From Bacteroidales bacterium (GTDB lineage: Bacteria > Bacteroidota > Bacteroidia > Bacteroidales > WCHB1-69): 64,000 bases of DNA. A model generated the notes under the pieces. That model saw only the letters and a list, made by a program, of their open reading frames with translations. It did no database searches and had not been told where the DNA came from. The position numbers and the translations under genes are program-made. Shown one piece after another: positions 49,192 through 63,866 of the stretch (positions are counted from its first letter, which is position 1; each line of letters begins with the position of its first letter). The stretch is from the NCBI GenBank assembly GCA_045132055.1, contig JBGURP010000033.1, positions 128,806 through 192,805 on the forward strand. Reading direction: 5' to 3'.

Positions 49192-50637
49192 TTATTTCAT
49201 CTCTTCACACGCCACAATGCCGTCGCGGGTGGCGGTGATGCGGAAACCGCGGTATTCAGTCTCTTCTTCGTGGATGAACTGCAGCACGATGTGGATGATA
49301 TAGACCCGCAAGGTGGGCACCGATTCCAGCGTGCCGTTCTCCGTGAGCGTATCGACCTGCAGGGTAGGGTCGTCCATCTTGCGCGTGTATTGCTGGATGT
49401 GGAACCGCATGATGTCGTGGATGCCGTCGAAACGGTACTCGTATCGGTTGCGCAGGTTCCGGTTGTCAATCTGCACCTGCTTGCGGTACAGGATGGTGCG
49501 CTCCTGCTGCAGGGCGTTGTCGGCCTCCAGACTGTTCCGGTTGCGGATGGCCAGCACGCGCTCGGGCGTCTTGGCATCATTGATGAAATCCATGCCCTCC
49601 TTGATCCAGCCGATGTTCTCGTCTTTGAAATGCAGGGTGGTCTTGTGGTCGAAATACTTCGATTTGAGCCGGTGCACGAACAGGTTACGCGCAAAATCCT
49701 TGATGCGGTCTTTGAACATGTAGGCCACAATCAGGATGATGAAGATGAGGAACGGGTAGCTGCCTAAATACTTCTGGAATGGCCAGGCAATGAGTGTGGA
49801 CACCAACATGGCGAAACCGGCGGCAATGCTGAAGGTAATCTCCTTCATGGCGGCGCCGTCGTTGGTGGTGTCTTGCTTGAGATATAGAGCGCTCTCAACG
49901 TACTTTTTGAGCAGGCCATGCTTGTACACCAGATTGCGGTTGGCCACGTCATCGTGGGGCGTGATATGGCTGTAACCCATGCTCTCTTTGTAGGAAACCT
50001 CTTGCTTGATAAGCTGTTGGAGTTTGGGACGAGCGTTCCCGCAATCATTCTCCGGATGCGCATCCATGAATCTCAACAAACGGGCAGCCTGTATGCCGAT
50101 AAGATGACTCATGTATTCATCGCCATGCAACAAAACCGTGGGCACAAAATCATGGCCGGTATGTTCCCGAATCAACTGGCGGTATGCCTCGGTGATGCGG
50201 GTAACATCCTCCACGATTTCGATGAGTGCAGGTGTCGATATGTCAGCGGTGTTGGTTTTCAAGATTTCGTTGGTGGCATTGCGCAGGGCGCTCTTGAAGA
50301 TGGCGCAGAACATCTTGACCTCGTATTCCAGATCGTGGATGCTGTCGGGTTGTTTCCGATACTGGTCAAGGGCTTGTTTCACGTGTGCCAACGGAGACTT
50401 GTCACCAACCACCAAATCCGAAAGGGCAAAGTTGGGCGTGATGAGGCGGATGTTTGACTTCACATCGCGGTAAAACTGCTCTTTGCTGTATGTGGACGCA
50501 TTGATACCCAGATTATTCGGCACGAAAATCCAGGAGTTGACCTTGAAATTGCTCTCCGCGTCATGCTCACTCCCCGCGAATCCCACTTTGAATTCGATGG
50601 AGAACTGGTCGTGTATTTTGGTGGTGATGTTGATCAT
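49192..50637 (-). CDS. hypothetical membrane protein (481 aa), family not recognised
   Basis: Soluble N-terminal ~270 aa, two central TM helices (ITFSIAAGFAMLVSTLIAWPF, YPFLIFIILIVAYMF), and a soluble C-terminal ~170 aa. Confidence 0.6.
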   Translation of the reverse strand: MINITTKIHDQFSIEFKVGFAGSEHDAESNFKVNSWIFVPNNLGINASTYSKEQFYRDVKSNIRLITPNFALSDLVVGDKSPLAHVKQALDQYRKQPDSIHDLEYEVKMFCAIFKSALRNATNEILKTNTADISTPALIEIVEDVTRITEAYRQLIREHTGHDFVPTVLLHGDEYMSHLIGIQAARLLRFMDAHPENDCGNARPKLQQLIKQEVSYKESMGYSHITPHDDVANRNLVYKHGLLKKYVESALYLKQDTTNDGAAMKEITFSIAAGFAMLVSTLIAWPFQKYLGSYPFLIFIILIVAYMFKDRIKDFARNLFVHRLKSKYFDHKTTLHFKDENIGWIKEGMDFINDAKTPERVLAIRNRNSLEADNALQQERTILYRKQVQIDNRNLRNRYEYRFDGIHDIMRFHIQQYTRKMDDPTLQVDTLTENGTLESVPTLRVYIIHIVLQFIHEEETEYRGFRITATRDGIVACEEMK

Positions 50638-50769
50638 AAGATGGGGTGAATGAGGTACAAGGGGGTGAAAGAGGATTGTCTGTATAGACGTGGCATGCCG
50701 CGTCTTGATAACATTGAGAGTCCCGCGAGAATTGAGATTGCAAAGGTAGTATTTTTATGGTAATTTGTG

Positions 50770-50777
50770 TAATTTTG
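50770..50777 (+). promoter_or_regulatory. candidate -7 box (taattttg) for the GH29-GH3 gene
   Basis: 21 nt upstream of ATG 50798. Confidence 0.5.
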
Positions 50778-50797
50778 CATTTCCATAATTGAATGAT

Positions 50798-53700
50798 ATG
50801 AAAAAAATATACTGGCTTTTGTTACTCGTTGCGGTTTCCTTTTCTGCTTTTGCGCAGGATGCGGATGCTGCCAATCCCGATTTGGATCTTTCCGCCGCTT
50901 ACATTCCGCCCCGTGAGGCCGATGTGCGCGTGCATCTTGACCAGTGGCAGGACCTCAAGTTCGGCATGATCATCCACTGGGGTCTCTATGCCGTGCCCGG
51001 CATCGTGGAGTCGTGGTCGATATGCTCCGAGGATGAAGATTGGATTCCGCGCGACAGCACTATGGACTACAACGCTTACAAGCAGTGGTATTGGAATCTG
51101 AACAAGGAGTTCAATCCCAGACAGTTCAATCCGGATCAGTGGGCCGCTTGCGCTAAAAACGCCGGCATGAAATATGTGGTTTTTACCACCAAGCATCACG
51201 ACGGCTTTGCCATGTACGACACCAAGTACAGCGATTTTTCCATCGCCAAGGGGCCATTTGCCGATCATCCCAAAGCCGATGTGGCCAAGTATGTGTTTGA
51301 GGCGTTCCGCAAGCAGAATATGATGATTGGCGCATACTATTCCAAACCCGACTGGCATTCGCAAAATTATTGGTGGAGCCGCTATGCCACACCCGACCGC
51401 CATGTGAACTACACTATTGCCAACCATCCGCAGCGCTGGAATGATTTCAGGCAATTTGTTTATAATCAGATAAATGAGATCACATCCAATTATGGTAAAA
51501 TAGACATCCTGTGGCTGGATGGTGGCTGGGTGCGTGCTCCGAAGGAAGACATTGGCATGGATAACATCGCCAAGATGGCGCGCCGCAATCAACCCGGCCT
51601 CATCATCGTGGACCGCACCGTGACCGGCGAGTACGAGAACTACCGCACGCCCGAGAAGATGATTCCCGAGAAGCAGCTGCCGTACCCGTGGGAGACCTGC
51701 ATGCCGCTGAGCAAGGACTGGGGCTTTGTGCCCGGTGCCACATTCAAAACGCCAGAGACGATCATCCGCACGCTGGTTGAGGTGGTGGCCAAGGGCGGAA
51801 GTTTGCTGCTTGGCGTGGGACCCACCCCCGAAGGCATTATCGAGCCCGAGGTGGCGAAGATTCTGAATGAAATCGGCGTCTGGTTGAAAGCCAACGGCGA
51901 GGCCATCTACAACACACGCAATACGCCGGTGTATCACGATGGCAATGTCTGGTTTACGGCGGCGAAGGACAGGCTGACCACCTACGCCATTGTGTGCCCT
52001 GAAGGACCGATGCCGGCTACAGTGTCCTGGCACGGCAACCTGCCCGCAAAAGGCTCCAAGATGGTATTCGTGGCTGACCATTCCGTTGTCAAATACAAAC
52101 TCTCCGGCGACTCGGTCATCATCTCGGTGCCGAAATCTGTTCGGGCGAAAGGCAAACCCTTTGCCGTGGCGTTTCAGACGGCCTCCAACTTTTCCTACAA
52201 CGATTTGAACCGCAACGGAAAATGCGATCCGTATGAGAACCCGAACCTTACTGTCAATGAGAGAGTGGAAGATTTGCTCTCCAAGATGACCTTGGAAGAA
52301 AAAGTCGGCCAGCTTGCGATGACGATGGGGTGGGAGTATTATGAAAAGATTGGGAATCAATATGTTTTGACGGAGAAATTCAAAAAGGAACTCCGCGAGA
52401 AACACTTGGGCAGCACCTGGGCACTGATGCGCGCCGACCCATGGACGCAGAAGACCCTGCAAAACGGATTTACGCCAGAGGCTGCCTATAATTTGACCAA
52501 CGAGATGCAGCTATGGAATCGCCAGAATACCCGCTTGGGCATCCCTTTGTTGTTTGCCGAAGAAGCTCCGCACGGACACATGGCCATCGGCACCACGGTG
52601 CTACCCACCGCCATTGGCCGTGCCTCCACTTTTAACAAAAAGTTGGAGAATAGTTTGGGCTGGTTGGTGGCTAACGAAATTTATGCGCAGGGCGCACACA
52701 TTGCCTTCGGGCCTGTTCTCGACATAGTGCGCGACCCCCGCTGGTCGCGGGTGGAGGAGACCTACGGCGAAGACCCTGTCCTTACGGCAAAAATGGGATG
52801 CGAGTATGCAAGTGGACTACAATCGTATAACCCTCACCAGCGATATTTGCCAGGCGTCATTTCTACGCTGAAGCACTACACAGCCCACGGCATCTCCGAG
52901 GGTGGCCACAACGGCAACACCGCCCAGGTGGGCAAGCGTGAGCTGCTCTCCGTGCTCTCGTACCCCTTTATGATGGCCTTGCGGCAGTATGGCATCCAGT
53001 CGGTGATGACCGCCTACAACGATGTGGATGGAATTCCTTGTACGGGCAACAAATGGCTGCTCCACGATGTGCTGCGCAAGGAGTGGGGATTCCAGGGTCT
53101 GGTAATTTCCGACCTCTATGCCATCAATGGGTTAGTGAGTACCCCTATCGCTGCTGATTACTCCGAGGCCGCGGCTCTGGCCGTGAAGGCGGGTGTGGAC
53201 ATCGACCTCGGCGCCTCCTGCTATGGCGAGCCGCTGGTACAAGCGGTAAAGAATGGTTTGGTGACGGAAAGCCAGATCGATGAACTGGTGAAACATGTGC
53301 TGACTCAAAAGTTCCAGCTCGGCTTGTTTGATGCGACATTTGACAAACCCTATGTGCCTTTCGACAAGACATTGCACGACAGTCAGAATCTGAAGATGGC
53401 GCAAGAATCCATTATCTTGCTGAAGAATGATAATGAGACACTTCCGCTCTCCAAGGAGGTGAAAAAGGTGGCCGTTATCGGGCCCAATGCCGACAATGTC
53501 TATAATATGTTGGGCGATTACACTGCTCCGCAGGCAGAGGGCTCCGTGGTGACGGTGCTGCAAGGCATCCGCGAGAAGCTGTCCAACGCGCAGGTGGAGT
53601 ATGTGCAGGGGTGCCATATCCGTGACACCTCGTTGAACGACATCGCTCGCGCGGTGCGTGCCGCCGAAGGGGCTGATGTGGTGGTGGCGGTGCTGGGTGG

Positions 53701-54490
53701 CTCCAGCGCGCGCGATTTCCGCACGAACTACGAGCAGACGGGCGCCGCCAATGTGACCGGTCCCGCCGTCAGCGATATGGACGCGGGCGAGGGCTTCGAC
53801 CGTGCCGGCCTCGGCATGCTCGGCCGGCAGGAGGAGCTGTTGCAGGCGCTCTATAACACGGGCAAGCCCGTGGTGCTGGTGATGATCCAGGGCCGTCCGC
53901 TCGACCTCTCGTGGGCGGATGCGCATGTGCCTGCCATTCTCAACGCGTGGTATCCGGGCGCGCAGGGCGGCAGGGCCGTGGCCGGCATCCTCTTCGGCGA
54001 TGTGAACCCCTCCGGCAAGTTGCCCATCTCGTATCCGCGCTCCGTGGGCCAGCTGCCCGTCTATTACAACACCACGGAGGTGCGCCGCGACTACACCGAC
54101 GCACCTGCCAGCCCGCTCTATCCCTTCGGCCACGGACTGAGCTACACCACCTTCGAGTACTCCAACTTGCAGTCTGTCTGGAAAAACGACACCACCTTGG
54201 GGGTCTCCTTCCAGCTGACCAACACGGGTCAATACGACGGTGCCGAGGCTGTGCAGCTCTATATGCGCCACAACCAGTCCTCCGTCAAAACGCCGGAGCG
54301 CCAGCTGAAGGCCTTCGACAAGGTGTTCCTGAAGCAAGGGGAGATGAAAACCGTGACGATGACGCTTTCCAAGTCGGATTTCGCCATCCTGGACGCCGAT
54401 TTGCGCTGGGTGGTGGAGCCGGGCACAGTCACGCTAATGGTGGGGAGCTCGAGCCAGGATGTGAGGGGAGAGATAATAGTTGAGAGATAA
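50798..54490 (+). CDS. fusion: alpha-L-fucosidase (GH29) + beta-glucosidase-like GH3, exported
   Basis: Signal peptide. GH29 part: IIHWGLYAVPG, FTTKHHDGFAMYD. GH3 part from ~aa 480: DPRWSRVEETYGEDP, KHYTAHG, GLVISDLYA, plus a C-terminal FnIII-like domain. Confidence 0.88.
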   Translation: MKKIYWLLLLVAVSFSAFAQDADAANPDLDLSAAYIPPREADVRVHLDQWQDLKFGMIIHWGLYAVPGIVESWSICSEDEDWIPRDSTMDYNAYKQWYWNLNKEFNPRQFNPDQWAACAKNAGMKYVVFTTKHHDGFAMYDTKYSDFSIAKGPFADHPKADVAKYVFEAFRKQNMMIGAYYSKPDWHSQNYWWSRYATPDRHVNYTIANHPQRWNDFRQFVYNQINEITSNYGKIDILWLDGGWVRAPKEDIGMDNIAKMARRNQPGLIIVDRTVTGEYENYRTPEKMIPEKQLPYPWETCMPLSKDWGFVPGATFKTPETIIRTLVEVVAKGGSLLLGVGPTPEGIIEPEVAKILNEIGVWLKANGEAIYNTRNTPVYHDGNVWFTAAKDRLTTYAIVCPEGPMPATVSWHGNLPAKGSKMVFVADHSVVKYKLSGDSVIISVPKSVRAKGKPFAVAFQTASNFSYNDLNRNGKCDPYENPNLTVNERVEDLLSKMTLEEKVGQLAMTMGWEYYEKIGNQYVLTEKFKKELREKHLGSTWALMRADPWTQKTLQNGFTPEAAYNLTNEMQLWNRQNTRLGIPLLFAEEAPHGHMAIGTTVLPTAIGRASTFNKKLENSLGWLVANEIYAQGAHIAFGPVLDIVRDPRWSRVEETYGEDPVLTAKMGCEYASGLQSYNPHQRYLPGVISTLKHYTAHGISEGGHNGNTAQVGKRELLSVLSYPFMMALRQYGIQSVMTAYNDVDGIPCTGNKWLLHDVLRKEWGFQGLVISDLYAINGLVSTPIAADYSEAAALAVKAGVDIDLGASCYGEPLVQAVKNGLVTESQIDELVKHVLTQKFQLGLFDATFDKPYVPFDKTLHDSQNLKMAQESIILLKNDNETLPLSKEVKKVAVIGPNADNVYNMLGDYTAPQAEGSVVTVLQGIREKLSNAQVEYVQGCHIRDTSLNDIARAVRAAEGADVVVAVLGGSSARDFRTNYEQTGAANVTGPAVSDMDAGEGFDRAGLGMLGRQEELLQALYNTGKPVVLVMIQGRPLDLSWADAHVPAILNAWYPGAQGGRAVAGILFGDVNPSGKLPISYPRSVGQLPVYYNTTEVRRDYTDAPASPLYPFGHGLSYTTFEYSNLQSVWKNDTTLGVSFQLTNTGQYDGAEAVQLYMRHNQSSVKTPERQLKAFDKVFLKQGEMKTVTMTLSKSDFAILDADLRWVVEPGTVTLMVGSSSQDVRGEIIVER

Positions 54491-54528
54491 TAGTTTAGAG
54501 TAGAGAGATGATAGATTAGAGATTAGAG
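54468..54528 (+). repeat. tandem 7/14-mers of the GAGATTA family running from the last codons across the stop
   Basis: GAGAGATAATAGTT x2, then TAGAGTAGAGAGATGATAGATTAGAGATTAGAG. The stop TAA is at 54488-54490. Confidence 0.85.
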
Positions 54529-54553
54529 TGGGAACGTTTTGCTATCATCGTAA

Positions 54554-54868
54554 TCACATAAACTCATATTGCAAAATCGCCACATTCATCGCGCTTTCCA
54601 GTTTGCATATTGTTTCAAGGGACAGGTTTTCCTCTCCTTTGAGAAGGCGTGAAACATATTGAGGCGAGCACCCCATACGATCTGCAACATCCTGTCTGGA
54701 AAGGTTTTGCTGCTTCATTGCCAACGCAACTTTTATGGCAATCCGACGGGAATATCGCAACCATCCTTTCGATTTGGCATACTGTAAGCGTTCTTCTTCC
54801 ACACGCCAAGCGGAATCCTCCTGCGATTGGTAGCGGCTTAATCTTTCTATCGCTTCTTCTCGGGTCAT
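54554..54868 (-). CDS. XRE-family HTH protein (104 aa), copy 1
   Basis: ...QQNLSRQDVADRMGCSPQYVSRLLKGEENLSLETICKLESAM is an HTH_3 motif. AAGGAGG lies 7 nt upstream of the ATG. Confidence 0.85.
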   Translation of the reverse strand: MTREEAIERLSRYQSQEDSAWRVEEERLQYAKSKGWLRYSRRIAIKVALAMKQQNLSRQDVADRMGCSPQYVSRLLKGEENLSLETICKLESAMNVAILQYEFM

Positions 54869-54942
54869 AAGGCAACCTCCTTTTCATGGTTGTAACGGAC
54901 AGCCCATAAACGTCCATCCTCGATTACCTTGTCAAATGTCAT
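54865..54942 (-). CDS. possible 25-codon upstream ORF (MTFDKVIEDGRLWAVRYNHEKEVAL), ATGA-coupled to the HTH gene
   Basis: The ATG at 54942 lies 26 nt downstream of the tacttttg box. The stop TGA overlaps the HTH ATG. It is too short for the ORF track, and I have no evidence that it is translated. Confidence 0.3.
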   Translation of the reverse strand: MTFDKVIEDGRLWAVRYNHEKEVAL

Positions 54943-54967
54943 ATTTTTTAGTTTTCAGAATTTGCAA

Positions 54968-54975
54968 CAAAAGTA
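54968..54975 (-). promoter_or_regulatory. candidate -7 box (tacttttg) for uORF-HTH, copy 1
   Basis: Reverse complement of caaaagta; identical in copy 2. Confidence 0.5.
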
Positions 54976-54991
54976 ATAAAATTTCCAATGC

Positions 54992-55007
54992 GAAACTTAT
55001 AGGTTTC
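54992..55007. promoter_or_regulatory. inverted repeat GAAAC-N6-GTTTC, candidate operator
   Basis: gaaacttataggtttc lies between the two divergent -7 boxes. It is identical at 57962-57977. Confidence 0.45.
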
Positions 55008-55043
55008 ACATTTTTGTTTTTAAAATTTGAATCGCGTTTTTTC

Positions 55044-55051
55044 TATTTTTG
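55044..55051 (+). promoter_or_regulatory. candidate -7 box (tatttttg) for the WG-repeat/patatin operon
   Basis: 28 nt upstream of ATG 55079. Confidence 0.5.
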
Positions 55052-55078
55052 CAGTAGATTTCATTAATTGACATAGAT

Positions 55079-56464
55079 ATGAAAAAACTCTTCACCATAT
55101 TCCTCATTCTCTGGTGCTTCATCCTTTCGGCGCAGACCGATATCCCGTATGTGTCCGTTGATTTGAAGCAAATAACGCCTTACAATGCTATCTTGAAATT
55201 TCATTCAAATAAGGACTGCCATCATTATTATGTTTATAAAGACAGGGGAAACGAAGTGATTCTTTGGGCAACAGTTTTTGGAATGATACCGGAAGATGTG
55301 GTTTCTTCATTCGGTAATCGTATTGACACAGTAGAGGAAGATTGGACTTCTCATTGGACAGATCTTGATCCCGAACACAACTGTCAAGTTTATGTAGTCC
55401 CTTGTGATGCTGATGATCATCACTATTCTTGTGAAGCGACGAGATTCAAAACTTTTTTCGATGGTGGTCAGGGACGCTCTACCATACAAATATCAAGCAA
55501 TTTCATCACCGATACATCAGCATATATTTTATGTGTACCTAATGAGGAAACAGCAGGATACTATAACGGTATTATACCTTCCGATTGGTTCAACAAGCTG
55601 GGACTTGATTCAGTGTGTCGGCTTATGCAAACCCATGAGATGCTGTACGAGACGGATAGATGGGGGCATCTTTTCCTGAATCGTGGCACCCGTTATGCCG
55701 TTGTTGCGTTTGGAAAAAATGGCAATGGCGAGTTTGGAGACACTACAGTGCACTGGTTTACCACTTTAGGCAAAAAACAGATTGTGGAACAGGATACATC
55801 ACCAGTTATTTTCTATTCGAGCGGTGGTTTTACAGGCTTTATTCCAGAAGACCAATGGCCGCAATATGTTGTGCGAGCATCTGTGGCCGACGGATCCAGA
55901 ATTCTTCAGGAAGTGGGATTGGGAGAAGGGAATATTATACTTGCCACATTGCCTGTAAGCGACTATTTTGTGGATGTTGTCCGCAAATCGGATGGAGGAG
56001 AAGTGTCGGAATTGATGCTGAGTATTAGAAAAGAAGATGTTACGAAAGAGTATTTCAAAGAGAATGACAATTTCGAATGGACAAGATTACGCCAGGATTA
56101 CACTTATGCATTGGGAAATGTAGATGGAACAGCAGTCACCCCTTTTATTTTCACGAAATTGTACTATGTCAATGGGTGTTTTATTGCTAAAACCCATTCT
56201 GGAAACAAATTGTATGATGTCCTGTTAACACCCAAAGGTAAGTATATCATTGGAACAGAAAGAGGATACGATAAGATTATCTATGACTCTTTTTCCGATA
56301 ATCTTTATGTGTTAAAATCAGGGAAAGTCGGGGTTTGCGATATGCACGGCCGGGAAATTGTAAAAGCTGTGTATGATGACATCATAGATATGGAGACCTG
56401 TTATAAAGCATTGAAAGATGGCAAAGAAATTCTTTTGGACAAGTTTGGGAAAATAATCAACTAA
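55079..56464 (+). CDS. exported protein with C-terminal WG/KWG-like repeats (461 aa)
   Basis: Signal peptide MKKLFTIFLILWCFILSA-QT. The C-terminal third has repeats such as YVLKSGKVGVCDMHGREIVKAVYDDI. The N-terminal 300 aa are unrecognised. Confidence 0.7.
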   Translation: MKKLFTIFLILWCFILSAQTDIPYVSVDLKQITPYNAILKFHSNKDCHHYYVYKDRGNEVILWATVFGMIPEDVVSSFGNRIDTVEEDWTSHWTDLDPEHNCQVYVVPCDADDHHYSCEATRFKTFFDGGQGRSTIQISSNFITDTSAYILCVPNEETAGYYNGIIPSDWFNKLGLDSVCRLMQTHEMLYETDRWGHLFLNRGTRYAVVAFGKNGNGEFGDTTVHWFTTLGKKQIVEQDTSPVIFYSSGGFTGFIPEDQWPQYVVRASVADGSRILQEVGLGEGNIILATLPVSDYFVDVVRKSDGGEVSELMLSIRKEDVTKEYFKENDNFEWTRLRQDYTYALGNVDGTAVTPFIFTKLYYVNGCFIAKTHSGNKLYDVLLTPKGKYIIGTERGYDKIIYDSFSDNLYVLKSGKVGVCDMHGREIVKAVYDDIIDMETCYKALKDGKEILLDKFGKIIN

Positions 56465-56466
56465 CT

Positions 56467-57495
56467 ATGGCATATCATTTTAAAAATCTGGTTTTTGAAG
56501 GCGGTGGCGTGAAAGGCATTGCCTACGTGGGCGCGTTGGAAGTGCTCGACAGAGAAGGAATCTTGAACGACATTGAGCGTGTGGCGGGAACCTCCGCCGG
56601 CGCCATGGTGGCGGTCATGGTGGCCTTGCGCTACTCCGCCGAGGAGGTGTTGCAAGTGCTTGGAACACTCAACTTCAGGGATTTCAAGGACAGTTCCAAG
56701 GGCATTCTGCGCGACACCATACGCCTCCTGAAAAATTATGGCTGGTATAAGGGCGACTACTTCCGCGACCTGATGGCCAAGTTGATCGAAAAGAAAACCG
56801 GCAACGGCGAGATGACTTTCGAACAACTGGAGGCGACAGGCCAATACCGCGATCTCTATCTCGTGGGCGCGGATCTGACCACCGGTCTCTCCAAGGTGTT
56901 CAGTGTCCACAACCAGGAGACCAAGACGATGAAAGTGGCGGATGCTGCCCGCATCTCCATGTCCATTCCGCTCTTCTTCGCAGCCGTGCGCGGCGGCAAG
57001 GACAACAAACATCTATTCGTGGATGGCGGCCTGCTGGACAACTATACGGTCAAGACTTTCGACCGGCAGACCTATCTGGCGGACCTGAACAATGCCAGAC
57101 GCACGGAGTACTACGAGAAAATCAACGAGAAGCTCAGGATGCAGCGAAGCACCTCCAGAAACGAGTATGTTTACAACAAGGAGACTCTCGGTTTTCGACT
57201 GGATGCCAAGGAAGACATCGACATGTATCTCACGCATGAGGAAAACTTCAAGGAGATCAAAGGTTTCTTTGACTATACCAAAGCCCTGGTAACCACTCTC
57301 ATCGATTTCCAGACCAATGTACACTTGCACAGCGACGACTGGCAGCGTACGGTCTATATTGATACTTTGGGTGTCAGAGCCATCGATTTTGACATTCCGC
57401 AGGAAAAGAAAGATGCTCTGGTCGAATCGGGGAAACTCTATACCGAGGCCTATTTAGAGTGGTATAACAACGACGAGGAAAAGGCGAACAAGTAG
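56467..57495 (+). CDS. patatin-like phospholipase
   Basis: FEGGGVKGIAY (oxyanion hole), GTSAGA (nucleophile Ser) and VDGGLLDN (catalytic Asp). No signal peptide. Starts 2 nt after the upstream stop. Confidence 0.88.
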   Translation: MAYHFKNLVFEGGGVKGIAYVGALEVLDREGILNDIERVAGTSAGAMVAVMVALRYSAEEVLQVLGTLNFRDFKDSSKGILRDTIRLLKNYGWYKGDYFRDLMAKLIEKKTGNGEMTFEQLEATGQYRDLYLVGADLTTGLSKVFSVHNQETKTMKVADAARISMSIPLFFAAVRGGKDNKHLFVDGGLLDNYTVKTFDRQTYLADLNNARRTEYYEKINEKLRMQRSTSRNEYVYNKETLGFRLDAKEDIDMYLTHEENFKEIKGFFDYTKALVTTLIDFQTNVHLHSDDWQRTVYIDTLGVRAIDFDIPQEKKDALVESGKLYTEAYLEWYNNDEEKANK

Positions 57496-57523
57496 GGGAG
57501 TGCTGTAAAACAGTCTTCCTTAA

Positions 57524-57838
57524 TCACATAAACTCATACTGCAAAATCGCCACATTCAGCGCGCTTTCCAGTTTGCATATTGTTTCAAGGGACAGGTTTT
57601 CCTCTCCTTTGAGAAGGCGTGAAACATATTGAGGCGAACACCCCATTCGATCTGCAACATCCTGTCTGGAAAGGTTTTGCTGCTTCATTGCCAACGCAAC
57701 TTTAATGGCAATCCGACGGGAATATCGCAACCATCCTTTCGATTTGGCATACTGCAGACGCTCTTCCTCCACACGCCAAGTGGAATCCTCCTGCGATTGG
57801 TAGCGGCTTAATCTTTCTATCGCTTCTTCTCGGGTCAT
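57524..57838 (-). CDS. XRE-family HTH protein (104 aa), copy 2
   Basis: Differs from copy 1 by A20T and M->L near the C-terminus, plus 9 synonymous nucleotide changes. Confidence 0.85.
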   Translation of the reverse strand: MTREEAIERLSRYQSQEDSTWRVEEERLQYAKSKGWLRYSRRIAIKVALAMKQQNLSRQDVADRMGCSPQYVSRLLKGEENLSLETICKLESALNVAILQYEFM

Positions 57839-57912
57839 AAGGCAACCTCCTTTTCATGATTGTAATGGACAGCCCATAAACGTCCATCCTCGATTGTCTT
57901 GTCAAATGTCAT
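57835..57912 (-). CDS. possible 25-codon upstream ORF, copy 2 (MTFDKTIEDGRLWAVHYNHEKEVAL)
   Basis: Same geometry as copy 1, with two amino-acid differences and one synonymous change. Confidence 0.3.
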   Translation of the reverse strand: MTFDKTIEDGRLWAVHYNHEKEVAL

Positions 57913-57937
57913 ATTTTTTAGTTTTCAGAATTTGCAA

Positions 57938-57945
57938 CAAAAGTA
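57938..57945 (-). promoter_or_regulatory. candidate -7 box (tacttttg) for uORF-HTH, copy 2
   Basis: Identical to copy 1. Confidence 0.5.
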
Positions 57946-58014
57946 ATAAAATTTCCAATGCGAAACTTATAGGTTTCGTATTTTTTTAGTGAAAAATCGA
58001 ATCGCGTTTTTTTC

Positions 58015-58022
58015 TACTTTTG
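58015..58022 (+). promoter_or_regulatory. candidate -7 box (tacttttg) for the 3-TM protein gene
   Basis: 22 nt upstream of ATG 58044. Confidence 0.5.
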
Positions 58023-58043
58023 CCGCCTGAAAGATTCAATGGT

Positions 58044-58775
58044 ATGAAAAAATCCCACAAGTCAAATTCCGTGACTATCCGCAGAATCCTCGGCATCGCC
58101 GCATTGGTGTGCTGGGCCATCGTCATCGTGCCTTGGATTATTCTGCCAATTGGCGACAGATTGGCGTGGCAGATGCAAAACTGGTCATTGATTCCAGCCT
58201 CTGTTTTCACAACAGTGTATTTTATCCTGTTAACCATTAGGAACAACAAAGACGTTCGTCAGGATGAAAATAAAATTCTATATGGATATGTAATAAGGAA
58301 TTGGTCGGTGTGCTGCATGGCAGTGATAATATGCGTAGCTCTCGTCCTCGTTGCCATATTTAAGGCCGACTATAAGGTGTGGAGCGATGGAAAGTACGTG
58401 ATATATGGCTACAAGGTATCTGACGATGAAAACGGTGGCTTCCGCAGTCCATCGATATTTGTTTTTTACGAACGGAAAGGTATTGTGGATGACAGATTGG
58501 GTATGATTGGTGATATGCGACAATATCTGTTCGATACTGGAGATATGAGTCGGATACGAAAGGTTGATTATACCGTTTACGAACCGCTTGATTTGATAAA
58601 GGAAGAGATGGATTATGTGCCATACGATAGCGACAGTGTGCGGCATCTTACCTCATTTTACCGATTAAGCGACAGAGATTATTACGAACAAATTCAGAAC
58701 GACTCGCTTTTATCGTTGATAAACCAATATAATCTGCGTCAATCTGCGAGTTCTGTGGGAAAAGAAAGTATGTGA
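58044..58775 (+). CDS. 3-TM membrane protein with a soluble C-terminal domain, family not recognised
   Basis: TM helices ILGIAALVCWAIVIVPWIILPI, IPASVFTTVYFILLTI and SVCCMAVIICVALVLVAIF. ATG 58044 is preferred to the TTG at 58020. Confidence 0.65.
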   Translation: MKKSHKSNSVTIRRILGIAALVCWAIVIVPWIILPIGDRLAWQMQNWSLIPASVFTTVYFILLTIRNNKDVRQDENKILYGYVIRNWSVCCMAVIICVALVLVAIFKADYKVWSDGKYVIYGYKVSDDENGGFRSPSIFVFYERKGIVDDRLGMIGDMRQYLFDTGDMSRIRKVDYTVYEPLDLIKEEMDYVPYDSDSVRHLTSFYRLSDRDYYEQIQNDSLLSLINQYNLRQSASSVGKESM

Positions 58776-58786
58776 TCAAAAAAAAT

Positions 58787-59251
58787 ATGGGAGCAACAGA
58801 ATACATTCAAAAACTGGGTCTTGAGCCACATCCGGAAGGTGGCTATTACCGCCAGCTGTTTGGCAACGACGAAACGGGAGAAAAGCCTGTGTCTACCATC
58901 TATTATATGCTGACAGCCAACGAAATGTCGGCATTCCATCGTCTACACAATATGGTGGAAATCTGGTATTTCCATGCCGGAGAGCCGCTCAATATCTATG
59001 TCATTGAGCCCGGCGGGACGCTGACCGTCCACCGTCTTTCCGAGCAGGACGAAATGCAGGTTGTCATTCAGCCGGAGCACTGGTTCGCCGCCGACATCCC
59101 TTCCAAGCGTGGTTTCTCTCTCGTTGGCTGCGCCGTCGGTCCGGCCTTCCGTTTCGAGAACTTTGAATTGGCGAAGAAGTACGAGTTGCTGAAACTTTAC
59201 CCGCAGCACGGAGAGTTGATAGAACGAATGTGTAAGGAAGTTGGTTCGTAG
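58787..59251 (+). CDS. cupin-fold protein (DUF985-like)
   Basis: MGATEYIQKLGLEPHPEGGYYRQLF...SAFHRL...EIWYFHAG. A GTG at 58772 is an alternative start. Confidence 0.75.
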   Translation: MGATEYIQKLGLEPHPEGGYYRQLFGNDETGEKPVSTIYYMLTANEMSAFHRLHNMVEIWYFHAGEPLNIYVIEPGGTLTVHRLSEQDEMQVVIQPEHWFAADIPSKRGFSLVGCAVGPAFRFENFELAKKYELLKLYPQHGELIERMCKEVGS

Positions 59252-59363
59252 GGTATATTTCTATATTTGCACTGGCAAAGCCCCACCAATGGGAAGTGTC
59301 ATATTTTTGCTATGAGACAATTTGATATACTTTTTTTGTCGCACACGGCTCACTAATAATTCG

Positions 59364-59371
59364 TACCTTTG
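59364..59371 (+). promoter_or_regulatory. candidate -7 box (tacctttg) for the LdcA-VanX gene
   Basis: 20 nt upstream of ATG 59391. Confidence 0.5.
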
Positions 59372-59390
59372 CACTCTAAAACGATTAAAC

Positions 59391-61130
59391 ATGAATAGAC
59401 GAAAATTTCTGATACATCTTATTCTCATAGCACTATGCCTCATTATTTTACAACCAGTTGATACCCATGGGCAAGGTACAAAGAATCCCCACAAATGCAC
59501 GGAACCTGCCTATTTGAAAGCGGGTGACAAGGTGGCACTCATCACCCCGTCGTACTATGGCTCGATGGAAAATACCCGTAAGGCGGCCAAGGTGTTGCGC
59601 AGTTGGGGTTTTAAACCGGTCATCGGGCCGAATGTGGGTCGCAAGCACCTGACTCACTACGCCGGGACTGCCGAGGAACGCCTTGCCGACCTTCGATGGG
59701 CACTCAATGATCCTGATATCAAGGCTGTCGTATGTATGCGTGGCGGTTATGGCACTCTGCATCTGGCGGAGGAACTGCCCTTGCAGGAGATGGCTTCGTC
59801 GCCCAAATGGATCGTGGGCTATAGTGACATTACCACGCTGCTGAATATGGAAAACAGTGCCGGCGTGATGGGCATTCACGGTGTCATGGGCTGCAATATC
59901 GGCGGCCGGGGTGGTGCGGACCTCTCCTGCACGCTTGTGCGCGACTTGCTCAAAGGTCAAGTGCCGCGCTATGAACTGCCCGCCAACGCGCTCAATATCC
60001 CCGGCCGGGCCACCGGCATCCTCGTGGGCGGCAATCTGGCCACCTTCGCTCCGCTGCTTGGCACCCAAGCCGACGCCGTTGGCAATACCGATATCATCCT
60101 TTTTGTGGAGGAAGTAGAGGAAACGCACCATAGTATCGACCGTCTTTTCAACATATTGAAAATGAGCGGTGTACTAAATCGTTGCAAAGGTGTTGTTCTG
60201 GGCGGATTTACCGATTGCGAGGACGATCTCGGTTATAGAAGTGTGGAGGCGATGCTGCGTCAATATATTGAACCATACAACATCCCTTTGCTCTGCGGTT
60301 TCCCCGCCGGTCACGAGAAAATGAATCTGCCGCTCGTGATGGGCGCGCCCGTGACCCTGGATGTGCGCACTGACGGCGCCACTCTAACTTTCGATATACC
60401 TGGCACTCAGAAGACAGTGCACACTGCAGGATTGTCAATCCCTGAAACCAGACCCGAAGAGGACGCTAGCCAGTTTGTGAACATTACCGATGTGGTGCCG
60501 GACGCTATTTTGGAGATTCGTTATTATGGTACGTATAACTTTGTGGGTCAGCGTATTGACGGATACGAGCAACCCACTGCCCTAATGACGAAGCGCGCTG
60601 CCGACAGCCTGAAGGCCGTGAGCGACGATGTGATGCGTCTGGGATACCGGCTGAAGATCTACGATGCCTACCGTCCGCAGATGGCCGTTGACCATTTCGT
60701 GCGCTGGGCCGCTGACATTACCGACACGCTGATGCGGCAGTATTTCTATCCTGAGGTGGATAAGAGCTTGTTGTTTGAGCAAGAGTACATTATGGCGAAG
60801 AGCGGTCACACACGCGGTTCCACGGTGGACCTTACCCTTTTCGACATGACCACGGAGAAGGAGGTCGATATGGGCGGCACATTCGACTGGTTCGGAGAGG
60901 AAAGCCACCCCGACTTTGGTGGCAATCCGGAAACGGGCGTTTATTACGGGAAACCGTCTCCGGCAGGCCGGACTATTACCGAGGAGCAGTTCCGCAACCG
61001 CCAGATCCTGCGTGAAGCCATGTTGCGACACGGTTTCAAAGCCCTTGACAGCGAATGGTGGCACTTCACTTTGAAGGATGAACCTTTCCCCGACACGTAC
61101 TTTGAGTTTCCGGTGAAGGAGTTAAAGTAA
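59391..61130 (+). CDS. fusion: S66 LD-carboxypeptidase (LdcA-like) + M15 D-Ala-D-Ala dipeptidase (VanX/DdpX-like), with an N-terminal signal/anchor
   Basis: MNRRKFLIHLILIALCLIILQP. S66 part: GYSDITTL (Ser), FPAGHE (His). M15 part: YDAYRPQ, SGHTRGSTVDLTLFD, SEWWHFTL. Confidence 0.85.
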   Translation: MNRRKFLIHLILIALCLIILQPVDTHGQGTKNPHKCTEPAYLKAGDKVALITPSYYGSMENTRKAAKVLRSWGFKPVIGPNVGRKHLTHYAGTAEERLADLRWALNDPDIKAVVCMRGGYGTLHLAEELPLQEMASSPKWIVGYSDITTLLNMENSAGVMGIHGVMGCNIGGRGGADLSCTLVRDLLKGQVPRYELPANALNIPGRATGILVGGNLATFAPLLGTQADAVGNTDIILFVEEVEETHHSIDRLFNILKMSGVLNRCKGVVLGGFTDCEDDLGYRSVEAMLRQYIEPYNIPLLCGFPAGHEKMNLPLVMGAPVTLDVRTDGATLTFDIPGTQKTVHTAGLSIPETRPEEDASQFVNITDVVPDAILEIRYYGTYNFVGQRIDGYEQPTALMTKRAADSLKAVSDDVMRLGYRLKIYDAYRPQMAVDHFVRWAADITDTLMRQYFYPEVDKSLLFEQEYIMAKSGHTRGSTVDLTLFDMTTEKEVDMGGTFDWFGEESHPDFGGNPETGVYYGKPSPAGRTITEEQFRNRQILREAMLRHGFKALDSEWWHFTLKDEPFPDTYFEFPVKELK

Positions 61131-61174
61131 ATGAACTTTGAACTATGATAATGAACTTTATAACATATTAGGCG

Positions 61175-61699
61175 ATGAACACAAAAACGAAAGACATATA
61201 CCTCGCGGGAGGCTGTTTCTGGGGGACAGAACACTTCTTCAAGCAAGTGGAGGGCGTTGTGGAAACCGAAGTGGGATTTGCCAATGGACATACGGAGAAT
61301 CCTACGTATAAGGAGGTCTATACCGACGAGACGGGCTATGCCGAGACCGTCCGTGTGCGTTACAATCCCGAGGTGGCGAGTTTGGAATTCCTGCTGCAGA
61401 TGTTTTTCAAAGCCATCGACCCTGTGAGTGTGAACAAGCAGGGACACGACGAGGGGACCCGCTACCGTACGGGCATCTATTACACGGACGATGAAGACGT
61501 GCCTGTAATCGACAAAGTATATGCTATGGAACAACAAAAATATGACCAACATTTGGCCGTCGAGAAGCAGCCTCTGGAACGTTTCTACACCGCGGAGGAA
61601 TACCACCAAGATTATCTCGACAAGAATCCCGACGGCTATTGTCATTTGCCCCAATCGCTCTTTGAGTTTGCAAGAAAGGCGAAAGACAAAAAAATATAA
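61175..61699 (+). CDS. msrA: peptide-methionine (S)-S-oxide reductase
   Basis: IYLAGGCFWGTEHFF motif, 174 aa. Confidence 0.92.
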   Translation: MNTKTKDIYLAGGCFWGTEHFFKQVEGVVETEVGFANGHTENPTYKEVYTDETGYAETVRVRYNPEVASLEFLLQMFFKAIDPVSVNKQGHDEGTRYRTGIYYTDDEDVPVIDKVYAMEQQKYDQHLAVEKQPLERFYTAEEYHQDYLDKNPDGYCHLPQSLFEFARKAKDKKI

Positions 61700-61736
61700 T
61701 AGACAAAAATCATTATACCGGATTGGAATTCACGCC

Positions 61737-62543
61737 TTACCGCAAATCGCGGAGAGGGATTTCGTAACTGGCAGCTGTGTGGCCGCCTCTCCATTTCGGC
61801 ATTCCCTTCAGGATTTTGGTGGCTTCTGCGCGGAATGCCTGCTCATTGGCAGACAGCGACTCTTCTTTCGGTTGGAACACCACATCCTTCACTTCGCCGG
61901 TTTCGCTGATAATGAGCACGATGTATGCATTGTAGTACTTCGCATTGTACAGGAAGTCCAACGGGGTACTCAATCGGGATTTCAACCATTGTGCCGGAGT
62001 GCCTTCAATGGAAGGATACCATTCGTGTGCTTCTACTGCAACACCGGGATCTTCAATTTCAATAATGCCTTCTGTTTCCCAATCCCAACCTTCATCTATG
62101 ATTAGGTCTTGTTTGGGCTTTTTCGTACAGTTGTTCGGCGCCGTGTCTATAGGGCTGAGGCCGAGCACCATCTCTATAGTATCTACTTGACCAGGAGCAG
62201 GCTTTTGTGCTTCTTGTCCTGTGGTTTCTTCTGAAATTTGTTGCGCTGAATTTTCACTGGCCAGTTTTGGCTGTTCCGTTTCTCCGCGTGTTTGTGGGAG
62301 GTGGCAGCTGCCCATCATCATGGAGGAAACGGCGATACCTGCTATCGTCACGGCTTTCCCAAGGCTCTGGCGTTTGGATAGCTCCTGTTCTATGTAGCGA
62401 ACTTCTGCCTCGCAGTAGGGACACGTGCCTCGGCAATCGCCTTCGTGGGTGCACTCGCGGGTATCCAGCGGGATTCCGTTCTCCCGCGCCACACGCTGCC
62501 GCACTTCCTTAAGATATTCACAGGTCCTTTTCCCTTTTTTCAT
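61737..62543 (-). CDS. single-pass membrane protein: Cys-rich cytoplasmic N-terminus + TonB-C-like C-terminal domain
   Basis: MKKGKRTCEYL...TRECTHEGDCRGTCPYCE (five Cys), TM helix AVTIAGIAVSSMMMGSC, and C-terminus ...VVFQPKEESLSANEQAFRAEATKILKGMPKWRGG. ATG 62543 is used instead of 62711. Confidence 0.65.
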   Translation of the reverse strand: MKKGKRTCEYLKEVRQRVARENGIPLDTRECTHEGDCRGTCPYCEAEVRYIEQELSKRQSLGKAVTIAGIAVSSMMMGSCHLPQTRGETEQPKLASENSAQQISEETTGQEAQKPAPGQVDTIEMVLGLSPIDTAPNNCTKKPKQDLIIDEGWDWETEGIIEIEDPGVAVEAHEWYPSIEGTPAQWLKSRLSTPLDFLYNAKYYNAYIVLIISETGEVKDVVFQPKEESLSANEQAFRAEATKILKGMPKWRGGHTAASYEIPLRDLR

Positions 62544-62608
62544 GATGATCAAATTGAGGATGCAAAAGTAAAAAAAATATCTTCGTTTGGTTTTTATTGA
62601 TGATTTTG

Positions 62609-62616
62609 TATTTTTG
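62609..62616 (+). promoter_or_regulatory. candidate -7 box (tatttttg) for the TonB-C gene
   Basis: 14 nt upstream of ATG 62630. Confidence 0.45.
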
Positions 62617-62629
62617 CAAAAAAAAGAAG

Positions 62630-63043: not shown

Positions 63044-63059
63044 TAATGGAATGCAGACG

Positions 63060-63686: not shown

Positions 63687-63696
63687 TATAACGCTG

Positions 63697-63704
63697 CAAA
63701 GGTA
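63697..63704 (-). promoter_or_regulatory. candidate -7 box (tacctttg) for the radical SAM gene
   Basis: 11 nt upstream of ATG 63686, which implies a very short leader. Confidence 0.4.
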
Positions 63705-63807
63705 TGATTTTTCCATTAATACCATTCATTTTGATGTATCCGTATTCCATGTTTTATAGATGTTCTCGTACTGCTGGAACATCTGCTCTGCATGTCCGAA
63801 TTTTGAT

Positions 63808-63815: not shown

Positions 63816-63866
63816 CACCCGCGTTTTTTTGCGCGTATTGTTTTTTGAAAATTGAATTGTTGAAAT

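Follow-up and report, generated by a model that had tools for sequence, protein, structure and literature searches.

Two antitoxin-like XRE cassettes, probably toxin-less remnants of a two-gene module, at the edges of a hypervariable segment in a Bacteroidales bacterium

Comparison of the window (the whole stretch of 64,000 nt analysed here) with related loci leads us to propose that it carries two orphan antitoxin-like cassettes, duplicated remnants that would have lost their toxin gene. We consider it likely that each of two direct repeats is a toxin-less derivative of a widespread two-gene module, and that the copies have recombined at the edges of a hypervariable segment. The copies border a low-GC accessory segment, holding a 461-aa gene and a patatin gene, in a hypervariable site between a core GH3 gene and core 243-aa, cupin and carboxypeptidase genes. 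The features are as follows.

50789–54490, plus strand: left core flank, alpha-L-fucosidase/GH3 fusion gene, 56% GC
54551–55052, no strand: repeat copy 1 (probable toxin-less cassette), from 3 nt past the end of the HTH gene up to the rightward −7 box
54554–54868, minus strand: HTH gene 1, 104 aa, XRE/Cro-C1 type, antitoxin-like, now orphan; PF01381 E = 7.8e-13
54865–54942, minus strand: 25-codon stub 1
54968–54975, minus strand: −7 box TACTTTTG of the stub/HTH operon, copy 1
54992–55007, no strand: palindrome GAAACTTATAGGTTTC (GAAAC-N6-GTTTC), copy 1, likely HTH operator (predicted)
55044–55051, plus strand: −7 box TATTTTTG; distance 27 nt to the ATG of the 461-aa gene, 36 nt to the palindrome
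55079–56464, plus strand: 461-aa protein with signal peptide, without a Pfam match above threshold; constantly paired with the patatin gene in several strains
56467–57495, plus strand: patatin-like phospholipase, 342 aa; PF01734 E = 1.5e-29
57521–58023, no strand: repeat copy 2 (probable toxin-less cassette), 95% identical to copy 1
57524–57838, minus strand: HTH gene 2, 104 aa, 2 amino-acid differences from gene 1; PF01381 E = 1.6e-13
57835–57912, minus strand: 25-codon stub 2
57938–57945, minus strand: −7 box TACTTTTG of the stub/HTH operon, copy 2
57962–57977, no strand: palindrome GAAACTTATAGGTTTC (GAAAC-N6-GTTTC), copy 2
58015–58022, plus strand: −7 box TACTTTTG; distance 21 nt to ATG 58044, start of the 243-aa gene
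58044–58775, plus strand: 243-aa protein with three membrane spans, conserved gene
58772–61130, plus strand: right core flank, DUF985 cupin gene and LD-carboxypeptidase/M15 dipeptidase fusion gene, 52% GC

Self-BLAST of the window returned a single repeat pair, 54551–55052 versus 57521–58023 (95.0% identity, 503 nt, offset 2970 nt), with no third copy in the whole 64 kb. The 15 substitutions and zero indels counted in the first 457 nt by the initial annotation were reproduced exactly, and the match then decays as described, with a 1-nt indel, as far as the cargo −7 boxes; the longest mismatch-free runs are 80, 78 and 77 nt. Each repeat contains a 104-aa XRE HTH gene, a 25-codon ORF, the GAAAC-N6-GTTTC palindrome and two back-to-back TAnnTTTG boxes, so that promoter-like boxes are indeed present on both strands.

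Each repeat had been described as a complete XRE-regulator cassette with a uORF. The box, the 25-codon ORF and the HTH gene are all there, but the cassette is better described as a deletion derivative of a two-gene operon, consisting of a 180-aa gene and the HTH gene, and the supposed uORF as a fusion of the opening 22 codons of the 180-aa gene with its final 3. The junction, ATCATGA/AAAGGAG, between ATCATGACAAAGAA and ATTATCAAAAGGAG, is the same in both stubs, each of which overlaps the HTH start through ATGA. In relatives (loci L002, L004, L007–L010, L011b, L015, L017a and L023) the same ATG opens an intact 180-aa ORF that ends in ...KEVAL and again overlaps the HTH start (ATGA). Both window copies differ from this form by a 465-bp in-frame deletion with imperfect 14-nt repeats as endpoints, and the flanks of a full locus (L004) and a toxin-less one (L011a) are nearly identical. 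The aligned sequences identify the stub as an evident deletion remnant of the 180-aa gene; its pN/pS of 0.38 makes it faster evolving than the HTH gene (0.044). The ancestral module would have comprised, in order, the palindromic operator, the TAnnTTTG promoter, the 180-aa gene and the 104-aa XRE HTH gene, with start overlapping stop, and deletion between the 14-nt repeats would have left the stub and an orphan HTH gene. The same deletion allele is found at several positions in the population, and may reflect a single origin with spread by gene conversion, or recurrence at the same microhomology.

The 180-aa gene and HTH gene, together with palindrome and promoter, are widespread in rumen Bacteroidales, the full operon being present in 55 of 75 assessable species-representative loci. 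The two genes are lost asymmetrically (Fisher p = 1.7e-7): the 180-aa gene is accompanied by the HTH gene in 77 of 77 loci (HTH-less, 0/77), whereas the HTH gene is without an intact partner in 20 of 75, six of these 20 retaining partner remnants. Because the 180-aa gene never occurs without the HTH gene, while the latter often occurs alone, the module behaves, as far as these patterns go, like a toxin–antitoxin pair. In L086 and L042 the partner gene has also decayed, in independent events with different junctions.

The AlphaFold model of the 180-aa protein (pLDDT 96.5) has as its best PDB matches in Foldseek chains A and C of 6AF4 (E = 0.04–0.06, probability 0.85–0.90), which are HigB of S. 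pneumoniae HigBA (PMC7984235), followed by chains of ParDE and HigBA2 complexes and BrnT. The order of secondary-structure elements is the same in the model and in HigB, suggesting a probable toxin of the RelE/ParE fold that carries additional helices; the toxin assignment is nevertheless weak, with Foldseek E-values of only 0.04–0.2 and target-normalised TM-scores of 0.44–0.48 for the three best matches. Sequence and profile searches of Pfam, NCBIfam and PDB gave no match for the protein, nor did a viral structure library for its model. The HTH protein is probably the cognate antitoxin and autorepressor. Its domain has a Cro/C1 fold matching C-proteins, HipB, SinR and HigA in structure comparison; against the HigA family TIGR02607 it scores 21.8 bits, under the 47.7 cut-off.

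A TAnnTTTG box occupies the stub/HTH-operon position in 49 of 51 related loci, and AAC-N6-GTT occurs at a fixed distance in 48 of the 51, compared with 2.9% of background windows; the GAAAC-N6-GTTTC site put forward earlier is therefore a genuine, conserved and operator-like element. With 16 nt separating it from the −7 box of the HTH operon, it covers part of the −33 region, where the HTH protein would most likely bind to its own promoter. The orphan HTH gene is still kept by strong purifying selection, in agreement with the view that both copies are selectively maintained. Genes 1 and 2 differ, as previously counted, by 11 nt in 10 codons, of which 8 are synonymous and 2 non-synonymous (A20T, M94L); the Nei–Gojobori method puts the synonymous changes at 9 and the non-synonymous ones at 2 (binomial p = 4e-5). 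The pN/pS is 0.06 between the window copies, 0.04–0.07 for HTH gene 1 and 0.044 among nine toxin-less copies, all nine intact, and the protein of HTH gene 2 is encoded identically on 23 other contigs. A large share of the synonymous divergence between HTH copies may be older than the loss of the toxin gene.

Alternatively, the cassette could be a portable regulator with a bidirectional promoter, its HTH protein using the palindrome to repress or activate the 461-aa/patatin operon and the 243-aa gene, in the role of controlling whatever conflict or defence cargo sits to its right. We regard this as rather unlikely. Plus-strand TAnnTTTG boxes do stand 21–27 nt before both cargo start codons, with the palindrome positioned between the two promoters, and homology between the copies extends to the cargo ATGAAAAAA. 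The divergent promoter also moves with the cassette in this clade, where the two precede at least five genes, encoding the 461-aa protein, a 539-aa exported protein, the 243-aa membrane protein, patatin and, in L024, an M28 peptidase. The claim that the cassette stands before different cargo is thus true in close relatives, but that of a dedicated cargo regulator is contradicted by the other species: among 47 of them the upstream neighbour is divergent in 20 and co-directional in 27, an essentially random orientation, and the 88 flanking genes, mostly with housekeeping roles, represent 74 Pfam families. Conservation stops just past the palindrome, with sequence farther upstream unalignable in the 51 loci, and the alignments support the module as an autonomous, self-contained unit. 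Moreover, the 461-aa and patatin pair has its own promoter, without the cassette, in L012, L013 and L017. The layout makes control of the cargo by the HTH protein a possibility only, because the palindrome lies on the HTH −33 region and 36–37 nt from the cargo −7 boxes. Any effect on rightward genes would be a side effect of the common intergenic region, not the purpose of the module.

Nor is the cargo clearly defence-related. The patatin protein is far under the cut-offs of CBASS and VpdC families, and neither family profiles nor PADLOC gave defence matches for the 461-aa and 243-aa proteins. The signal peptide of the former fits its earlier description as an exported WG-repeat protein, but the WG label stems from one sub-threshold match (PF14903, E = 0.024; score 15.1 bits, cut-off 25.6). 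For the latter, the three proposed spans are confirmed and the start is most likely ATG 58044, not TTG 58020; the product from this ATG has exact matches in 24 contigs, and a cassette precedes the gene in all strains with visible upstream DNA.

A reading of the 180-aa and HTH genes as an anti-phage module resembling PDC-M64, with patatin as membrane-damaging effector and the window as a decayed version, appears improbable to us. In PADLOC, PDC-M64B matches the 180-aa protein (E = 6e-6) and PDC-M64C/B the HTH protein (E = 5e-11 to 1e-10), the patatin gene adjoins the cassette in many strains of the clade, on either side, and its product is weakly like CBASS-type phospholipase effectors. However, both PADLOC matches are weak, and PDC systems are themselves untested candidates, proposed because they occur embedded within established defence systems (bioRxiv 10.1101/2024.01.29.577857). 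Outside the clade just 1 of 88 neighbouring genes is a patatin gene, the cassettes of L011 and L001–L006 have no patatin gene within the DNA of those contigs, a cyclase or other sensor gene is lacking, and the 180-aa gene is deleted in both window copies.

The toxin-less cassettes delimit a segment of 40–45% GC, compared with 52–56% in the flanks, and in related strains the interval from GH3 to the 243-aa gene has at least seven other gene orders. Variation at the locus is thus abundant in the population, rather than the cassette being always linked to the same cargo. Two cassettes with different cargo in between also occur in L011 and L017. Copy 2 is a mosaic, its promoter side lying 1 nt from L014 and its HTH coding sequence closest to the '539' group (6–8 differences, against 15 to L014); comparison with relatives' cassettes shows copy 1 to be mosaic likewise, which bears out the suggestion that the direct repeats recombine. 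Recent tandem duplication within this strain, or an artefact of assembly, is a hardly credible origin of the repeat: the copies are co-linear, in direct orientation and 2970 nt apart, but they differ by 5%, each is nearer to copies of other strains than to its partner (copy 2 promoter side, 1 nt from L014 versus 12 nt from copy 1; copy 2 HTH gene, 6 nt from L001 versus 11 nt from copy 1), the layout recurs in L011 and L017, and the two-copy arrangement is real, as the initial annotation held, because the independent Logan contig L021 (SRR25030090), 100% identical to window 54978–57589, crosses both inner junctions with copy-specific variants.

These comparisons of gene order and alleles establish the site as a hot spot at which cassettes recombine. 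An integrase, attC-like sites or other site-specific recombination machinery were found in none of the loci examined, and exchange seems to proceed by ordinary homologous recombination, with cassette copies of 0.5–1 kb and the core flanks as its substrates. The two copies would then be different alleles, joined and patched by homologous recombination instead of duplicated recently on the spot, and recombination between cassettes, within and between strains, would reshuffle the adjoining genes.

The arrangement had been reported as matching no described system; it fits known type II toxin–antitoxin-like modules, orphan antitoxins and recombination hot spots, and the overall picture is a familiar kind of genome dynamics, not a new system. 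As in loci of the HigBA type (S. pneumoniae HigBA, PDB 6AF4), a gene for the larger protein precedes one for a Cro/C1 HTH protein, the stop codon of the first overlaps the start of the second, and a palindrome lies within the module's own promoter; the model has a beta-strand, helices, a four-stranded sheet and a C-terminal helix in the order of HigB, the module is scattered across genomes, and its first gene decays while the HTH gene survives. Unlike them, the first protein has 180 aa with extra helices instead of about 90–120 aa and no sequence-level link to the RelE, ParE, HigB or YoeB families, and the HTH protein is under the HigA family cut-off. As in orphan antitoxins and decayed loci, the toxin gene would have been lost by internal deletion, with antitoxin gene, promoter and operator intact and under purifying selection; here, by contrast, the cassette is present twice, directly oriented and bordering an exchangeable accessory segment, and one deletion allele recurs across population positions.

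Restriction–modification C-proteins, among them C.BclI, C.AhdI and C.Esp1396I, match the HTH domain best in both structure and sequence. They are likewise small regulators that bind as dimers to a palindrome within their own promoter. The window HTH genes, however, have no adjacent restriction or methylase genes, their protein has an extra 40-residue N-terminal region, and the partner is the 180-aa protein. Vibrio superintegrons are gene-cassette arrays stabilised by toxin–antitoxin modules. The site shares with them, and with chromosomal hot spots and variable islets flanked by core genes, a fixed position between core genes, accessory genes that differ by strain, interspersed toxin–antitoxin-type modules (the window cassette; HicAB in L017) and repeated sequences as recombination substrate, but differs in its apparent use of homologous recombination in place of integrase and attC-like sites. 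A further difference from HigBA-type loci is the conservation of the 180-aa and HTH module: amino-acid identity is ~80% across many species, unusually high for a toxin–antitoxin pair.

The window carries two colinear direct repeats of about 0.5 kb, as reported in the initial annotation and borne out here by repeat finding, pairwise alignment and the window self-BLAST that had been proposed as a check. Positions 54551-55052 and 57521-58023 share 95.0% identity across 503 nt and are offset by 2970 nt, with no third cassette copy found by the self-BLAST in the whole 64 kb. The same count of 15 substitutions and no indel was obtained over the first 457 nt, and the perfect runs between the copies (80, 78 and 77 nt) are of sufficient length for RecA-type recombination. 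The two cassettes are built from the following elements:

54554-54868 (copy 1) and 57524-57838 (copy 2), minus strand: HTH ORFs of 104 aa, PF01381 Cro/C1-type helix-turn-helix (E about 1e-13)
One per copy: 25-codon ORF, whose stop overlaps the HTH start via ATGA
One per copy, minus strand: TACTTTTG box
One per copy: palindrome GAAACTTATAGGTTTC
One per copy, plus strand: TAnnTTTG box, 21-27 nt ahead of the start codon of the rightward gene

The rightward genes encode a 461-aa protein and a patatin after copy 1, and a three-membrane-span protein after copy 2, most likely starting at ATG 58044 to give 243 aa. The label of WG-repeat protein previously attached to the 461-aa product could not be upheld, as the match to PF14903 (WG-containing repeat) is a single repeat at residues 418-435 that scores 15.1 bits, below the Pfam gathering cut-off of 25.6. 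An independent public contig from SRR25030090 (L021) is 100% identical to window 54978-57589, covering both inner junctions and the copy-specific variants, which rules out that the arrangement is an assembly artefact.

The 25-codon ORF had been interpreted as a uORF. The ORF itself is present, but comparison to intact ORFs of relatives identifies it as the stump of a deleted gene. Twenty-three further ruminant-gut metagenome contigs encode a protein identical to the HTH protein of copy 2; an exact-protein look-up with that of copy 1 returned no record. In many of these contigs, as in L023 and L024 (species-representative assemblies), the ATG of the stub instead opens a 180-aa ORF with the C-terminus ...KEVAL, its stop sharing ATGA with the HTH start. 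Relative to the intact gene, the window has an in-frame deletion of 465 bp: the gene reads ...ATCATGACAAAGAA... close to its start and ...ATTATCAAAAGGAG... close to its end, and the stub junction reads ...ATCATGA/AAAGGAG... (slash, point of fusion), hence the deletion fused two imperfect 14-nt repeats. The identical junction is found in both window copies and in nine copies in total from this species; the deletion may either have spread by gene conversion or have recurred at the same microhomology. The stub reading frame is open in 9/9 toxin-less copies, compatible with a putative leader-ORF role coupling translation to the HTH gene, 25 codons being too few for proof of selection. A small 'uORF' beside an HTH gene should thus be compared to relatives for a deleted partner gene.

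A genome scan with the HTH protein (one genome per species) yielded 80 loci, which with few exceptions come from uncultured rumen Bacteroidales and Paludibacteraceae; the full two-gene operon is present in 55 of the 75 loci with sufficient upstream DNA. Alignment of the upstream regions reveals two conserved elements only, a palindrome, (G/T)(A/C)AAC-N6-GTT(G/T)(C/T), and the TAnnTTTG box, with sequence upstream of the palindrome being unrelated between species. AAC-N6-GTT occurs in 48/51 loci vs 2.9% of background windows, positioned 58-69 nt before the ATG of the operon; its distance to the -7 box is 16-22 nt (mode 21), the position expected for the -33 element in a Bacteroidetes promoter. 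This conservation agrees with the operator-like site suggested earlier, and we refer to the palindrome as a putative operator. Upstream neighbours of the module are divergent in 20/47 loci and co-directional in 27/47, and 88 immediate neighbours fall into 74 different Pfam families, mostly housekeeping (for example tRNA-editing domains, lumazine synthase, queuosine synthesis, UvrC and His-tRNA synthetase). Because of this mixed orientation and diversity of neighbours, the module is autonomous, without obligate cargo. The proposal of a complete regulator cassette built to drive unrelated conflict cargo is consequently not supported, the stub being the remnant of a deleted gene and the module having no obligate cargo; a 'regulator cassette reused before different cargo' can be a mere decayed selfish module at a recombination-prone site. 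In the window, 36-37 nt separate the palindrome from the cargo -7 boxes, a distance at which an effect on the rightward genes is possible, yet not indicated by position. In some Paludibacteraceae and Bacteroidales loci (L084 and L085, 5622-6318; L071, 5446-6315) a second, different XRE HTH protein of 107-111 aa replaces the 180-aa protein before the HTH gene.

Loss of the two genes is strongly asymmetric. In a metagenome search with the 180-aa protein, the HTH gene lies directly downstream in 77/77 assessable loci, so that the 180-aa gene is lone in 0/77, vs a partner that is absent or broken in 20/75 assessable loci of the genome search with the HTH protein (Fisher p = 1.7e-7). Partner remnants are detected in 6 of these 20, and in two related loci (L086 and L042) the partner gene has been hit by independent, different deletions or frameshifts. 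That the 180-aa gene is never alone and the HTH gene often is matches the behaviour expected of a toxin and its antitoxin, and this pattern of gene presence is the strongest functional evidence for a toxin-antitoxin (TA) module.

The HTH genes themselves are under purifying selection. The earlier count of coding differences between copies 1 and 2 was reproduced (11 nt changed across 10 codons, 8 of them synonymous), and the 9 synonymous vs 2 non-synonymous changes represent a significant silent excess (p = 4e-5). The pN/pS of the HTH gene is 0.044 among nine toxin-less copies of this species and 0.073 among six full copies, with 0.039 for the 180-aa gene and 0.38 for the 25-codon stub. The HTH gene is intact in 9/9 toxin-less copies, and the palindrome and promoter are intact in both window copies. 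In agreement with the initial annotation, the orphan HTH genes are thus selectively maintained rather than decaying, with the caveat that some of the silent divergence may predate the loss of the partner.

The 180-aa family is very large, with 2,354 matches in a 90%-identity collection and at least 1,018 clusters at 50% identity. In the source collections its members are called nothing more specific than 'hypothetical protein', and sequence and profile searches of Pfam, NCBIfam and PDB with the 180-aa protein gave no match. A very confident AlphaFold model (pLDDT 96.5), for which 49 diverse members were aligned, finds its best PDB matches by Foldseek in chains A and C of 6AF4 (E = 0.04-0.06, probability 0.85-0.90), which are the HigB toxin of S. 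pneumoniae HigBA (PMC7984235). Lower matches are chains of the ParDE1, ParD2:ParE2 and HigBA2 complexes, and BrnT. All top matches are chains of TA complexes or toxins, but they are weak (E = 0.04-8, TM-scores 0.3-0.48), and for this reason we regard a toxin fold of the RelE/ParE-superfamily type as probable only; the model has the same order of elements as HigB, in which an N-terminal strand and helices precede a four-stranded sheet and a C-terminal helix comes last. Comparison to viral structures (BFVD) yielded noise only. The HTH domain has a generic Cro/C1 fold, shared with C-proteins, HipB, SinR and HigA (Foldseek target-normalised TM-scores of about 0.6-0.8 to HipB, HigA and C-proteins), and the N-terminal 40 residues of the protein are predicted with low confidence. 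By sequence it falls outside the curated HigA family TIGR02607 of NCBIfam (21.8 bits, cut-off 47.7).

Distant HTH homologues (64-65% identity) in two other loci (L091, 3546-4389; L092, 5517-6285) directly follow a YoeB-type gene (PF06769, E about 1e-15), which is in turn preceded by an 86-aa gene; this could be a three-gene cluster or two adjacent modules. We considered this arrangement as proof of an antitoxin and found it ambiguous, since the 86-aa gene could be a YefM-like antitoxin. The 180-aa protein shows no link to the YoeB-type toxin of L091 (hhalign probability 2%). A relative of the 180-aa protein (P0163) has a 14-residue internal tandem duplication (NVGIYIITGGAIKL twice) within the most conserved strand region.

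Contrary to the view that the arrangement matches no described system, the closest known kind is a type II TA system of the toxin-first, HigBA-like sort whose antitoxin is an XRE protein, decayed here to an 'orphan antitoxin' state. Shared features are the operon layout with an overlapping stop/start (ATGA) in the 180-aa and HTH genes of relatives, the XRE/Cro-C1 HTH type of the second protein, and the palindrome in the promoter of the operon itself. The 180-aa family can now be given a role that is open to testing: in rumen Bacteroidales it would be the toxin-like partner of an antitoxin-like XRE protein. Among PADLOC profiles without curated cut-offs, there are weak matches of the 180-aa protein to PDC-M64B (E = 6e-6) and of the HTH protein to PDC-M64C/B (E = 5e-11 to 1e-10). 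PDC-M64 is itself only a candidate system in PADLOC, and a literature search on PDC-M64 and on orphan antitoxins in Bacteroides found nothing. Other system classes fit less well. Controller (C) proteins of restriction–modification systems sit in or next to their own operon, unlike the window HTH genes; neither window copy nor the close relatives have an adjoining endonuclease or methylase gene, which excludes this identity, and one DNA methylase occurs among the 88 module neighbours in other species. The patatin reaches 50.5 bits against CapV NF041079, the CBASS patatin effector, far below the cut-off of 200, and no cyclase gene is found in its window neighbourhood, excluding a CBASS lipase system. 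An integron or gene-cassette array, having an integrase or recombinase and flanking recombination sites, is likewise rejected, since integrase/recombinase families are missing from the Pfam lists of all related loci and the sole repeats at the segment borders in the window are the cassettes themselves.

The same cassette is found beside other genes in related strains, confirming that the locus varies within the population and marking it as a recombination hot spot, as follows.

Gene order in the window and in related contigs (semicolons separate segments; GH3, left core flank; F, intact cassette; T, toxin-less cassette)
Window: GH3; cassette; 461-aa + patatin; cassette; 243-aa – cupin – carboxypeptidase
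L011: GH3; cassette (T); 539-aa – TraB – M56 fragment – 582-aa – sigma factor; cassette (F); 243-aa
L012, L013: GH3; AAA_14; 488-aa – patatin; cassette (T); 243-aa
L014: GH3; TraB; 567-aa – patatin; cassette (T); 243-aa
L017: cassette (F); TraB – HicA – 142-aa gene (possible HicB) – 462-aa – patatin; cassette (T); 243-aa
L001: GH3; 319-aa – BlaR – BlaI; cassette (T); 539-aa ...
L004: GH3; cassette (F); 539-aa; 319-aa – BlaR – BlaI; HTH fragment; AAA_14
L023, L103: GH3; cassette (F); patatin ...
L102: ... 462-aa – patatin; HTH gene (no stub or 180-aa gene called); GH97

A cassette lies upstream of the 243-aa gene in every contig with visible upstream DNA. In L012, L013 and L017, homology to the window begins at the ATG of the 461-aa gene, which is there preceded by a different promoter. 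GC content is 40-45% across the cassettes and the 461-aa, patatin and 243-aa genes vs 52-56% in the flanking genes. Tabulation of 71 informative sites reveals block-wise mosaicism of the cassettes, in line with the earlier suggestion that the repeats are open to recombination. The promoter side of copy 2 is 1 nt from L014, its HTH coding sequence groups with the cassettes preceding the 539-aa gene (6-8 differences vs 15 to L014), and copy 1 switches type within the HTH gene. Full and toxin-less copies form no separate groups, the full cassette of L004 and a toxin-less one of L011 (L011a) differing by 1 + 1 nt outside the deletion. The mosaicism rules out a recent in-situ duplication, and the window copies instead represent alleles joined and patched by homologous recombination. 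No tRNA was detected in the window by a tRNA scan, and hence no tRNA-linked island signature; likewise, no Rfam family was found in 50000-64000 and no match of the cassette to a phage collection by blastn.

Several smaller features accompany the locus. The left flank (50789-54490, plus strand) encodes a 1233-aa alpha-L-fucosidase/GH3 fusion, whereas in L002, L023 and L102 an independent gene of about 800 aa encodes the GH3 part, followed in L002 by a DUF4139 gene and a separate fucosidase gene. This flank is much more diverged between strains than the right one (82-90% vs 95-96% nt identity). On the right, a single ORF (59322-61130, plus strand) joins an LD-carboxypeptidase (S66 N- and C-terminal domains) to a D-Ala-D-Ala dipeptidase (M15), a fusion of two cell-wall recycling enzymes present in all related contigs. 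The gap between the GH3 stop codon and copy 1 is occupied by an A/G-rich 21-nt tandem repeat (54471-54521, AGATTAGAGTAGAGAGATAAT, 2.4 copies), and short tandem repeats occur just upstream of the module in other species (TTTAGTC/TTAGAC runs in L065, GTTTGAA in L066, GACTGCA in L101); these may be chance or marks of insertion sites. Beside the BlaI/BlaR cluster of L004 and L009, an 18-codon fragment of the HTH 3'-end (498-551, 89% identical) is probably what remains of another cassette copy that recombination destroyed.

Based on these analyses, we propose that the module works as follows. A dimer of the HTH protein would bind the palindrome and repress its own promoter, and the 180-aa protein would act as a HigB-like toxin neutralised by the HTH protein. 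Orphan copies may persist because they still act as autoregulated regulators or because they supply spare antitoxin against intact copies, and the cassettes may serve as homology arms, exchanging DNA between and beside them. The locus offers a clean natural example of how what appear to be TA remnants persist as orphan regulators and as substrate for homologous recombination at a chromosomal hot spot. We consider it rather improbable that the toxin-less cassette has been domesticated, such that the orphan HTH gene, operator and back-to-back promoters form a portable unit placing neighbouring accessory genes under a common repressor and acting as a 0.5-kb homology arm. If so, rumen Bacteroidales could swap, delete or stack accessory modules here without an integrase, in effect an integrase-free cassette system made from a dead TA module.

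Elsewhere in the window, a 1417-aa ORF (22541-26794, minus strand) joins glycogen synthase/GT1, DUF3417 and alpha-glucan phosphorylase domains in one protein, and a perfect 28-nt palindrome was found by self-BLAST at 16127-16154. The product of a gene at 27577-35106 (minus strand), 2509 aa long, combines Spi inhibitor and C10 cysteine peptidase domains with a type IX secretion sorting tail. Two tandem repeats lie within this gene, one of 147 nt (3.8 copies, 28603-29156) and one of 303 nt (2.3 copies, 31954-32655).
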